Origin: Escherichia coli
GTDB lineage: Bacteria > Pseudomonadota > Gammaproteobacteria > Enterobacterales > Enterobacteriaceae
Strand: one strand, 5' to 3'
NCBI RefSeq assembly: GCF_045037415.1
Contig: NZ_CP173438.1
DNA: 64,000 nt
This document shows positions 57,001-63,000 of this stretch, piece by piece. A program made the position numbers. The stretch's first letter is position 1; every line of letters starts with the position of its first letter.

Positions 57001-60000
57001 TACCTGCATTTATTTTGATCGCATTAGCGGCTATTTATCTGCACTCCGGTGCCCCCGTTGCTATCGAAATGGATGCGAAGACCTTCTTCCCTGACTTCTC
57101 TAAAGTGGGCACCCTGGTTGTATTTGTTGCCTTCATTTTGAGTTATATGGGCGTTGAAGCTTCCGCAACCCACGTCAATGAAATGAGCAACCCCGGGCGC
57201 GACTATCCACTGGCTATGTTACTGCTGATGGTGGCGGCAATCTGCCTAAGCTCTGTTGGCGGTTTGTCTATTGCGATGGTCATTCCGGGTAATGAAATCA
57301 ACCTCTCCGCAGGGGTAATGCAAACCTTTACCGTTCTGATGTCACATGTGGCACCGGAAATTGAGTGGACGGTTCGCGTGATCTCCGCACTGCTGTTGCT
57401 GGGTGTTCTGGCGGAAATCGCTTCCTGGATTGTTGGTCCTTCTCGCGGGATGTATGTCACAGCGCAGAAAAACCTGCTGCCAGCGGCATTCGCTAAAATG
57501 AACAAAAATGGCGTACCGGTAACGCTGGTCATTTCGCAGTTGGTGATTACTTCTATCGCGTTGATCATCCTCACCAATACCGGTGGCGGTAACAACATGT
57601 CCTTCCTGATCGCACTGGCGCTGACGGTGGTGATTTATCTGTGTGCTTATTTCATGCTGTTTATTGGCTACATTGTGTTGGTGCTTAAACATCCTGACTT
57701 AAAACGCACATTTAATATCCCTGGTGGTAAAGGGGTGAAACTGGTCGTGGCTATTGTCGGTCTGCTGACTTCAATTATGGCGTTTATTGTTTCCTTCCTG
57801 CCGCCGGATAACATCCAGGGTGACTCTACCGATATGTATGTTGAATTACTGGTCGTTAGTTTCCTGGTGGTACTTGCCCTGCCCTTTATTCTCTATGCTG
57901 TTCATGATCGTAAAAGCAAAGCGAATACCGGCGTCACTCTGGAGCCAATCAACAGTCAGAACGCACCAAAAGGTCACTTCTTCCTGCACCCGCGTGCACG
58001 TTCACCACACTATATTGTGATGAATGACAAGAAACACTAACCATGTCTGAATGCTTATAAGACAAGGGAGCGATAATTCATCGCTCCCTTTTTCGTGCTT
58101 GTTGTCGTATTGACTTAACCGGGATAAGTACGAGAATGAGCGCACATCTGTTTACCGGAAACCAGCACATATGGATATCTGCTCCCGAAACGAGAAATTA
58201 GCGATTAGAAGACCAGCGATACTGGTTGCACTGGCACTTTTACTGTGTAGTTGTAAAAGCACGCCTCCAGAGTCCATGGTGACACCACCAGCGGGCTCAA
58301 AGCCACCAGCCACGACGCAACAATCGTCACAACCGATGCGTGGCATCTGGCTGGCCACGGTGTCTCGCCTCGACTGGCCACCGGTTTCCTCGGTTAACAA
58401 TAGTAACCCCACCAGCCGGGCACGTGTACAACAACAGGCGATGATCGACAAACTGGATCATCTGCAACGTCTCGGCATAAACACGGTCTTTTTTCAGGTC
58501 AAGCCGGATGGTACCGCCCTGTGGCCATCGAAAATTTTGCCGTGGTCCGATCTTATGACCGGTAAGATTGGTGAAAATCCGGGTTACGATCCGCTGCAAT
58601 TTATGCTCGACGAAGCCCACAAGCGTGGGATGAAAGTACACGCCTGGTTTAACCCCTATCGCGTATCGGTTAATACGAAGCCCGGTACTATCAGGGAACT
58701 GAATAGCACCCTGTCTCAACAACCGGCCAGCGTCTATGTGCAACACCGCGACTGGATCAGAACGTCCGGCGATCGCTTTGTCCTCGACCCGGGCATCCCT
58801 GAGGTTCAGGACTGGATCACATCAATAGTTGCGGAAGTGGTTTCCCGCTATCCGGTAGATGGCGTGCAGTTTGATGACTATTTCTATACTGAGTCACCAG
58901 GTTCACGGCTAAATGATAACGAAACGTACCGCAAATACGGAGGCGCATTTGCGTCAAAAGCAGACTGGCGGCGCAACAATACCCAGCAGTTAATTGCGAA
59001 GGTTTCGCACACCATTAAAAGCATTAAGCCGGAAGTCGAATTTGGCGTTAGCCCGGCAGGCGTGTGGCGTAACCGATCACACGATCCGCTCGGTTCCGAT
59101 ACCCGAGGCGCGGCAGCCTATGACGAATCCTACGCTGATACCCGTCGATGGGTGGAACAAGGGTTGCTGGATTACATTGCTCCCCAAATTTACTGGCCAT
59201 TCTCACGGAGTGCCGCGCGTTATGACGTGTTGGCAAAATGGTGGGCGGATGTCGTTAAACCGACCAGGACCCGCCTGTATATCGGTATCGCCTTCTATAA
59301 AGTAGGAGAACCGTCAAAGATAGAGCCAGACTGGATGATTAACGGCGGCGTACCGGAACTGAAAAAGCAGCTCGATCTTAACGATGCTGTGCCGGAAATT
59401 AGCGGCACAATCTTGTTCCGTGAGGACTATCTGAATAAACCGCAGACTCAACAAGCGGTCAGCTATCTGCAAAGTCGTTGGGGCAGTTAAACTCCCATTC
59501 TTACTTTGTAACAAGCCGGTGCTTTACCCACTGGCTTGTTACCCTCTTGAACTATCCCACTAGCAATCATGCTTAAATACGTCAAATTAACCACGCAATT
59601 AACCACACTTAGTTAAACAGCCATAATCCCCCTAATAAAAATGTATGAATATGAAAAAACATACGATATTCGCTGTCACCGAAAAATAATTACGATGGGC
59701 TATACTCTTCTGAAGAACAGTAGCGTAGATTGAAACTGTCCTAAGTCGCTTATTTCTTTTCAGTATATCTTCATATTTCAGGAGAATATGGTGCAGTTAG
59801 CCAATCCCGCACGTTGTGTTTGGTTGATTTTGGCCTGCGGTTTAACCATAAAGGTCGACATTATTTTAAAGCCGCAAACGGCGAGGATATTGCCCTCTCA
59901 CTTTCCATCGGTGCCGCCATGTTTAATGGTCATCCTGACTATGAGCGCCTCATTCAAATAGCCGATGAAGCTCTGTATATCGCAAAAGACGAGGTAGAAA

Positions 60001-63000
60001 CCGTGTTGAACTCTGTAAAGCCAGTCTTTAGATGCGCCAGGATGCAGAGGTAATCATGAAGCTAACCGATGCGGATAATGCCGCCGATGGCATTTTTTTC
60101 CCCGCCCTTGAGCAAAATATGATGGGCGCGGTGTTAATTAACGAAAATGATGAAGTGATGTTTTTCAACCCCGCCGCAGAGAAGCTCTGGGGGTACAAAC
60201 GTGAAGAAGTCATTGGCAATAACATTGATATGCTGATTCCGCGGGATTTGCGTCCTGCGCATCCTCAATACATTCGTCACAACCGTGAAGGTGGTAAAGC
60301 GCGCGTCGAGGGGATGAGTCGGGAGCTGCAGCTGGAGAAAAAAGACGGCAGTAAAATCTGGACCCGTTTTGCGCTATCGAAAGTGAGCGCCGAGGGGAAA
60401 GTTTATTACCTGGCGCTGGTACGGGATGCCAGCGTAGAAATGGCGCAAAAAGAACAGACCCGACAATTGATTATTGCCGTTGACCATCTCGACCGACCGG
60501 TGATTGTCCTCGATCCGGAACGCCATATTGTGCAGTGCAATCGCGCATTTACCGAAATGTTTGGTTACTGCATTAACGAAGCCAGCGGTATGCAGCCCGA
60601 TACACTCCTGAACATTCCAGAATTCCCTGCTGATAACCGTATTCGTTTACAGCAGTTGCTATGGAAAACCGCCCGCGATCAGGACGAATTTCTGCTGTTG
60701 ACGCGCACCGGTGAAAAAATCTGGATTAAAGCCTCTATCAGCCCGGTTTATGACGTGCTCGCGCATCTGCAGAACCTGGTAATGACATTCTCGGATATCA
60801 CCGAAGAAAGGCAAATCCGCCAGCTTGAAGGCAATATTCTCGCCGCCATGTGCAGCAGCCCACCATTTCATGAAATGGGGGAAATCATTTGTCGTAATAT
60901 CGAATCTGTTCTCAACGAATCGCATGTTTCTCTGTTCGCGCTGCGCAACGGGATGCCGATACACTGGGCGTCATCTTCGCACGGTGCAGAAGTTCAAAAT
61001 GCGCAAAGCTGGTCAGCGACCATTCGTCAGCGCGATGGCGCGCCTGCGGGGATCCTGCAAATTAAAACCTCGTCAGGAGCAGAAACCAGCGCCTTTATCG
61101 AACGCGTGGCAGATATCAGCCAGCATATGGCCGCGCTGGCGCTGGAACAGGAAAAAAGCCGTCAGCATATTGAACAACTCATCCAATTTGATCCGATGAC
61201 CGGTCTGCCAAATCGCAATAACCTGCACAATTACCTCGATGACCTGGTCGACAAAGCCGTCTCTCCGGTGGTGTATCTCATCGGTGTTGACCATATTCAG
61301 GATGTGATTGATAGCCTTGGCTATGCGTGGGCCGATCAGGCATTGCTGGAAGTGGTCAATCGCTTTCGTGAAAAACTCAAACCGGATCAGTATCTCTGTC
61401 GTATTGAAGGTGCGTCTTTTGTCCTCGTGAGCCTGGAAAACGATGTCAGTAACATTACCCAGATCGCCGATGAGCTACGGAATGTGGTCAGCAAGCCGAT
61501 AATGATTGACGATAAACCATTCCCGCTCACCTTGAGCATTGGCATCAGCTACGACGTGGGTAAAAACCGCGATTACCTGCTCTCCACTGCTCACAATGCA
61601 ATGGATTTTATTCGCAAAAATGGCGGTAACGGCTGGCAGTTCTTCAGCCCGGCGATGAACGAAATGGTAAAAGAGCGTTTGGTTTTAGGCGCAGCGCTAA
61701 AAGAAGCGATTAGCAATAACCAACTTAAACTGGTTTATCAGCCGCAAATCTTCGCAGAAACGGGTGAACTGTACGGCATCGAAGCCCTTGCTCGCTGGTA
61801 CGATCCCCTGCATGGTCATGTGCCCCCTTCACGGTTTATTCCTCTCGCAGAAGAGATTGGTGAAATCGAAAATATTGGGCGCTGGGTCATCGCGGAAGCT
61901 TGCCGTCAGTTAGCAGAATGGCGTAGCCAGAATATTCATATCCCGGCGTTATCCGTTAACTTGTCTGCGCTGCACTTTCGCAGTAATCAGCTGCCTAATC
62001 AGGTATCTGATGCAATGCACGCCTGGGGTATTGACGGCCACCAGCTGACGGTGGAAATCACGGAAAGCATGATGATGGAACACGATACCGAAATCTTTAA
62101 GCGCATTCAGATCCTGCGCGATATGGGCATCGGTTTATCGGTAGATGATTTTGGTACGGGCTTTTCCGGATTATCCCGCTTAGTCAGTCTTCCGGTAACG
62201 GAAATCAAAATTGACAAAAGTTTTGTCGATCGTTGTCTGACTGAAAAACGCATCCTTGCCTTACTCGAAGCCATTACCAGCATTGGGCAAAGCCTCAATT
62301 TAACCGTCGTGGCGGAAGGCGTCGAAACCAAAGAGCAATTTGAGATGCTACGCAAGATCCACTGTCGCGTTATTCAGGGATATTTCTTTTCCCGCCCCCT
62401 GCCCGCCGAAGAAATTCCAGGCTGGATGAGCAGCGTGTTACCGCTGAAAATCTGATAAATTCCTCTCGCCCGCACTCGCGGGTTTTTATTTAACGTGACA
62501 CTGTCACTTAAATGCTGTGATTTCCGCTACGTTTAGTTGGACAACGACAACGCATAGCCATGTCAGAACAATCCCTTCTCAGCCTGATGTGATTGTGCTG
62601 ACGCATCAGGCATTCACGCGCCTGACGCGTCATCCGGCAACGCTTTACGATTTCAACTGGTAATCCAGCGTAATTTCCGCTTTCAGTACCTGAGAAACCG
62701 GGCATCCTGCTTTTGCTTTCTGGATAATGCCGTCAAAGGTGGAGGCATCAATACCCGGCACCGCAACTTCGCTCTTCAGTGCGATTTTAGTAATCGCAAA
62801 ACCGGCATCCACTTTATCCAGCGAGACATCGGCGGTGGTATCAATCGATGTTGGCGTGAATCCCGCTTCCCCCAGCATTAATGAAAGCGCCATTGAGAAA
62901 CATGCGGCATGCGCTGCGCCAATCAGTTCTTCAGGGTTGGTTCCTTTTTCGCCTTCAAAACGCGTGTTAAATCCATACGGCTGTTGGTTCAGCACGCCGC

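Follow-up and report, generated by a model that had tools for sequence, protein, structure and literature searches.

In Escherichia coli K-12, the dosCP operon (dgcO-pdeO, also yddV-dos) lies after digH (yddW) and encodes DosC, with a globin sensor, an I-site and a GGDEF domain, together with DosP; ddpXABCDF comes after dosP. Here we describe the corresponding locus in a window, meaning the whole stretch of 64,000 nucleotides (nt) analysed, of another E. coli genome (NCBI RefSeq assembly GCF_045037415.1, contig NZ_CP173438.1). The locus has the same position after digH, the same upstream region and a DosP protein 99% identical to that of K-12, whereas the sensor, I-site and GGDEF motif of DosC are missing and ddpXABCDF does not follow dosP. 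As read from the DNA, dosC is here a degraded, non-catalytic stub, a pseudogene beside an intact dosP. A sequence-only reading of the window had placed such a remnant at 59491-60055 next to a full-length dosP, and alignment and Pfam bear it out.

Loss of DosC has been described before. Cimdins et al. 2017 reported YddV/DosC to be missing from four strains, all of phylogroup B2, and present in their B1 and D strains (PMC5635171). The same paper calls DosC "frequently absent", citing Povolotsky & Hengge 2016, and remarks that strains without DosC may not fully respond to oxygen in biofilm regulation. A preprint on wound isolates of sequence type 131 (ST131) reports that in every ST131 reference isolate DosC has been changed into a short protein (bioRxiv 10.1101/2022.05.07.487787). 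The window fits these accounts, in which B2 isolates lack DosC but have DosP, and the DosC of ST131 is shortened. The portions of the published texts compared here give neither a base-level anatomy of the locus nor a count over 5426 genomes.

Still closer to the window are the remnant of strain CFT073 (C_RS09000) and those of other RefSeq genomes, which share both deletion junctions, the substitutions A215V, W220R and W458C, and the order digH-stub-dosP-osmC. CFT073 and four other genomes outside ST131 differ from it in that the frame of the tail is kept, with 165 nt annotated; the window and 548 others have 164 nt, annotated as 'frameshifted'. Thus, the dosC remnant is already annotated, as a RefSeq pseudogene, and published; what we add is the base-level anatomy, the counts of 1047 and 549 among 5426 genomes, and the order of events. 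The stub is an ordinary, lineage-wide allele that is not peculiar to this genome. We consider it very likely that the locus holds a lineage-fixed dosC (dgcO/yddV) remnant left by two ancestral deletions, with drift of the stub, and with dosP kept and most likely expressed.

Two deletions and a lost base in dosC

We aligned window positions 59300-60300 by BLASTN to a reference K-12-type locus (L002), in which the dosC ATG is at 4555. The match falls into three collinear pieces: 59300-59821, the end of digH plus the intergenic region, corresponds to L002 4001-4509; an island at 59822-59868 corresponds to 5196-5242, with 45 of 47 positions identical; and 59868-60300 corresponds to 5773-6206 (427/434 identical, one gap). 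The distance from digH to dosP is 565 bp in the window versus 1770 bp in the K-12-type genome, where the 1383-bp dosC fits.

This alignment to a full-length dosC defines the missing blocks base by base, as does comparison with two further full-length alleles. Deletion 1 (L002 4510-5195, 686 bp) takes out the final 45 nt of the leader together with the dosC start and everything up to codon 214, the globin sensor included. Deletion 2 removes 531 bp, which is exactly 177 codons (230-406), and with them the RxxD I-site (RSSD) and the GGDEF motif (residues 374-378). In total, the dosC region has lost 1217 bp relative to K-12 in two blocks, and one further base. Microhomology at either junction is at most 1 nt: none appreciable at deletion 1 and a single A at deletion 2.

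What remains is codons 215-229 (VDFGLRFNHKGRHYF) joined in frame to codons 407-460, about 70 codons in place of the 80-95 claimed from the sequence alone. Pfam matches on the remnant are confined to positions 37-54 of 110 in the DosC_2nd model and 115-157 of 161 in the GGDEF model. The middle domain is thus incomplete, with codons 215-229 alone kept, and the GGDEF active site and the RxxD I-site lie within the deleted codons 230-406. No Pfam match to the globin domain was found on the remnant, codons 1-214 being deleted. The sequence-only reading was therefore right that the globin sensor and the GGDEF active site are missing and that a GGDEF C-terminal tail remains; it had taken the tail for the sole remnant, which is in fact a composite with a 47-nt island between two deletions.

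The remnant segments are 96-98% identical in nucleotide sequence to K-12 dosC and syntenic between digH and dosP, which leaves no room for a chance resemblance. This identity, together with the position and a spacer to dosP identical to that of K-12, shows that the locus descends from dosC and is a pseudogene of it rather than a working member of the family. The possibility of an unrelated small GGDEF-tail gene, raised in the sequence-only reading, is rejected on the same identity and synteny. In ST131-type records, RefSeq labels the 3' stretch 'diguanylate cyclase domain-containing protein, frameshifted; incomplete; missing N-terminus'.

The further lost base is a C. Where K-12 has ATCGCCAAAAGA, the window has ATCGCAAAAGA: one C of a CC pair is gone, a single C is left at 59983, and the K-12 stretch ATCGCCAAAAGACGAGGT (I A K R R G) becomes ATCGCAAAAGACGAGGT. 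The ending KRRGRNRVEL had correctly been read as out of frame, but this had been put down to the loss of an A near 59993. The loss of an A is rejected by the alignment, and the A run at 59984-59987 has four As in K-12 and in the window alike. The ST131-type C loss scrambles the last 22 residues of the remnant, and the frameshifted open reading frame (ORF) at 59814-60053 ends in ...YIAKDEVETVLNSVKPVFRCARMQR with a TAA that lies 2 nt upstream of the dosP ATG. In B2 genomes outside ST131, the same frame has 72 codons and ends in KRRGRNRVELCKASL. The only in-frame start of the 79-codon ORF is a TTG without a Shine-Dalgarno sequence, and the ORF is probably not a gene.

Derived changes in the stub were polarised against three full-length alleles, those of K-12, the chicken isolate GPEC1352 and O157:H7. 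Each of the three coding changes so identified is non-synonymous: A215V and W220R in the island, and W458C at 60028.

Deletion 1 also alters a short ORF upstream of dosC. In K-12 this ORF has 13 codons (L002 4476-4517), an AGGAG Shine-Dalgarno sequence and a position 79 nt before the dosC ATG. The deletion lengthens it from 13 to 57 codons (ATG at 59788), and the peptide is not conserved between lineages.

Distribution and order of events

To analyze the distribution of the allele, we searched 5426 complete E. coli genomes with two probes. The double junction, represented by a 91-nt probe (59800-59890, coverage of at least 80%), is present in 1047 of them, about a fifth, CFT073 among them. In the remaining genomes, only the 47-nt island matches this probe, within an annotated full-length dosC. 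The frameshift was represented by an 81-nt probe (59955-60035) for which exact matches were counted; the exact stretch occurs in 549 genomes. Window positions 39500-64000 (24.5 kb) are 100% identical to ST131 genomes, including JJ1887, ZH063, SaT040 and 'O25b:H4-ST131'.

We then compared the window with four further deletion-type loci sampled at decreasing identity (L003-L006) and with CFT073. All five have both junctions, and all five keep the C and the original tail, so that the frameshift is absent from them. When the alleles are ranked, the deletion type matches at 98.8% identity or more in one piece, and the full-length type at 97.2% or less in three pieces, with a clear gap between them. 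This gap fits one clade-specific allele. Since the junctions occur without the frameshift in CFT073 and its like, the double deletion came first, in an ancestor of ST131 and sequence type 73 (ST73), and the C loss followed on the ST131 branch. Going by the sequences compared, the C loss is specific to one sublineage, the ST131 type.

We then propose the following course of events. Two illegitimate-recombination deletions would have occurred in the ancestor of the clade with ST131 and ST73/CFT073, which is phylogroup B2 according to the literature. They would have taken the start of dosC, the globin oxygen sensor, the greater part of the middle domain and the GGDEF catalytic core, so that about 70 codons were left together with the upstream promoter region and the ribosome-binding site of dosP. 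The stub would then have drifted, with its three amino-acid changes arising and, on the ST131 branch, one C being lost.

About one in five sequenced E. coli, the pandemic ST131 and ST73 lineages included, has thus lost DosC and kept the partner phosphodiesterase. Since DosC is lost in these pathogens, K-12 models of DosC and DosP, which concern oxygen control of cyclic diguanylate (c-di-GMP), PNPase, poly-N-acetylglucosamine (PGA) and curli, need checking before they are transferred to them. The locus also offers two simple markers, the double junction for the B2-type allele and the additional C loss for the ST131-type allele. The finding matters as context only; nothing in it is surprising to a specialist, and it opens no new question.

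Orphan dosP and alternative readings of the stub

The window encodes a DosP of 799 residues, 790 of them identical to K-12, with no gaps and no internal stop. Pfam recovers the architecture PAS-PAS-GGDEF(degenerate)-EAL, with two PAS domains, GGDEF at 378-525 and EAL at 547-781 (E = 3.5e-69). In the alignment to K-12, H69, M87 and the EAL motif (EALARW stretch) are unchanged; H69 and M87 correspond to His77 and Met95 of the 807-residue EcDOS, established in the literature as its axial heme ligands. The K-12 alignment, Pfam and the DosP identity agree with the earlier claim that the phosphodiesterase has lost the cyclase it pairs with. The ratio of non-synonymous to synonymous rates (dN/dS) relative to K-12 is 0.067 for dosP, comparable with 0.028 for gadC and 0.037 for digH; the dosP value suggests that dosP function is retained. 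Pairwise, the deletion-type dosP alleles differ by about 10 synonymous to 4 non-synonymous codons, an excess suggesting that purifying selection on dosP persists after the loss of dosC.

Over the 180 nt that precede junction 1, the window hardly differs from K-12, and this retained region includes a CTATACT box at 59700-59706. By inspection of the sequence against the sigma-S consensus, the box is a putative extended -10 element of the sigma-S type. Just past the digH stop, a perfect 14-bp hairpin (59508-59542) folds with a predicted energy of -21.7 kcal/mol (z -6.5 relative to shuffled sequences) but lacks a clean U tract. The hairpin is kept in K-12 with one compensable change and is probably a terminator or stabiliser of the digH 3' end. 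With so strong a hairpin after digH, transcription continuing from that gene is unlikely to account for most of the dosP transcript. dosP would instead be transcribed from the retained stationary-phase, sigma-S-type dosCP promoter, with a leader of about 340 nt. Orphan DosP is thus probably still expressed from the remaining promoter, and the result would be an oxygen-sensing c-di-GMP phosphodiesterase made without its partner cyclase.

In the ST131 strain AR_0081 (L012), an IS1 with a 9-bp target duplication (GAAGAACAG) is inserted at the position of window 59712-59720, immediately downstream of the CTATACT box. This IS1 probably separates dosP from its promoter.

Several points weigh against this account. 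The stub shows a higher share of non-synonymous changes than dosP (which has 9 non-synonymous and 43 synonymous codon differences from K-12; Fisher p = 0.028), and this speaks for decay of the stub, but the stub contributes just 3-4 substitutions to the contrast. The 1047 genomes are assigned to B2 on the strength of ST131, CFT073 and the literature. Some deletion-type genomes, namely CFT073 (L008) and 2015C-4136CT1 (L006), have a broken dosP, which may mean that selection on the orphan gene is weakening in places, or may reflect sequencing errors. The CTATACT box was not picked up by a generic sigma-70 scan, whose sole hit was at background level (59599-59627), and a search of the literature for a dosCP promoter or transcription start gave nothing usable.

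One alternative is that the truncation, the frameshift or both are sequencing or assembly artefacts of this genome. Single-base indels beside homopolymers are a common class of error, but the lost C comes from a CC pair and not from a long homopolymer. Moreover, 1047 complete assemblies share both junctions and 549 share the 81-nt stretch, coming from many laboratories and platforms, in place of the full-length dosC that the sequence-only reading had allowed might emerge on resequencing. With the same allele in hundreds of assemblies, an artefact is extremely improbable, and we reject it. Alternatively, a small protein of 72-79 residues with a new function could be made from the stub, for example a GGDEF-tail fragment contacting DosP or PNPase. 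The 79-codon frame is open, junction 2 is in frame and keeps 54 native C-terminal residues in B2 genomes outside ST131, the structure is stable over the 1047 genomes, and the ST131 preprint speaks of DosC being 'transformed into a novel short protein'. However, the only start in this frame is the TTG without a Shine-Dalgarno sequence, and the C-terminus is not conserved, ST131 having replaced the last 22 residues that other B2 genomes keep. The derived substitutions are all non-synonymous, two of the three replacing a tryptophan; no catalytic or allosteric motif is left, only the last quarter of the GGDEF fold being covered; and the RefSeq annotation pipeline (PGAP) labels the stub a pseudogene. 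We therefore hold such a protein to be very unlikely.

The remnant could also have been co-opted as a cis-regulatory leader that tunes Rho-dependent termination or the translation of dosP, so that the residual DNA would be maintained for dosP control and would not be junk. In K-12 as in the window, the upstream ORF is preceded by a strong AGGAG Shine-Dalgarno sequence and an ATG/GTG, only 8 of 566 columns vary among six deletion-type sequences, and the ST131 ORF in the remnant frame stops just short of the dosP ATG. Low diversity is expected anyway in a young clade, though, and 3 of the first 7 residues of the upstream-ORF peptide are different in K-12, its length also varying, while at least one ST131 strain tolerates the IS1 in the leader. 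Co-option as a leader is highly unlikely on this evidence. One could go further and see DosC loss with DosP retention in the B2 ancestor as adaptive and not neutral, rewiring oxygen-dependent local c-di-GMP signalling (PNPase/degradosome, PGA/curli) for extraintestinal life, with the conserved leader and stub as a dosP control element or micro-protein; we regard this as very unlikely. Micro-protein, regulatory leader and adaptive loss are not favoured by the evidence, and loss of dosC by two ancestral deletions followed by drift of the stub is the reading we prefer.

Feature coordinates and neighbouring genes

Table 1. Features of the digH-dosP region and its neighbours, in window positions
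Feature	Position	Strand	Remarks
gadC	56505-58040		upstream neighbour
digH/yddW	58171-59490		stop at 59490
digH-dosP spacer	59491-60055		565 bp
Native digH-dosC intergenic region	59491-59821	+	aligns to L002 4192-4509; kept to 46 nt before the former dosC ATG
57-codon out-of-frame ORF	59788-59961	+	upstream ORF fused to the remnant by deletion 1
79-codon mechanical ORF	59814-60053	+	TTG start, no Shine-Dalgarno sequence
Deletion 1 junction	59821/59822	+	686 bp relative to K-12
dosC island, codons 215-229	59822-59868	+	47 nt, DosC middle domain
Deletion 2 junction	59868/59869	+	531 bp, in frame
dosC 3' fragment, codons 407-460 and original TAG (60029-60031)	59869-60031	+	alignment, Pfam
Native dosC-dosP spacer with dosP ribosome-binding site GAGG	60032-60055	+	identical to K-12
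dosP	60056-62455	+	intact, 799 residues
osmC	62645-63076	minus

The intergenic region at 59491-59821 is 94% identical to L002 overall and nearly identical from 59600 on. Positions 59555-59600 form an indel-rich patch of this region with about 13 extra bases relative to K-12 (ATACGTCAAATTAACCACGC...), which resemble a partial duplication of the neighbouring AATTAACCAC motif.

The dosP lesions seen in other genomes are of different kinds. CFT073 differs from the window by two 1-nt insertions in dosP, at nt 1312 and 2311; 2015C-4136CT1 lacks one base of a GGGG run at nt 255; and O157:H7 F7386 (L011) has a 10-nt deletion in dosP (nt 1215-1224) despite an intact dosC. Each of these lesions may be genuine decay or an error of sequencing. 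The gene labelled dosP in PMC12089661 is plasmid-borne, in a blaTEM-1 transposable unit, and is irrelevant to the dosCP locus.

Downstream of dosP, the window lacks ddpXABCDF, six genes that span 6157 bp between dosP and osmC in K-12. In its place are 69 nt (62532-62600), of which 62 resemble an internal stretch of ddpF at about 80% identity. dosP is adjacent to osmC in all deletion-type loci and also in GPEC1352, which has a full-length dosC; since GPEC1352 lacks ddp and keeps dosC, the loss of ddp is independent of the loss of dosC.

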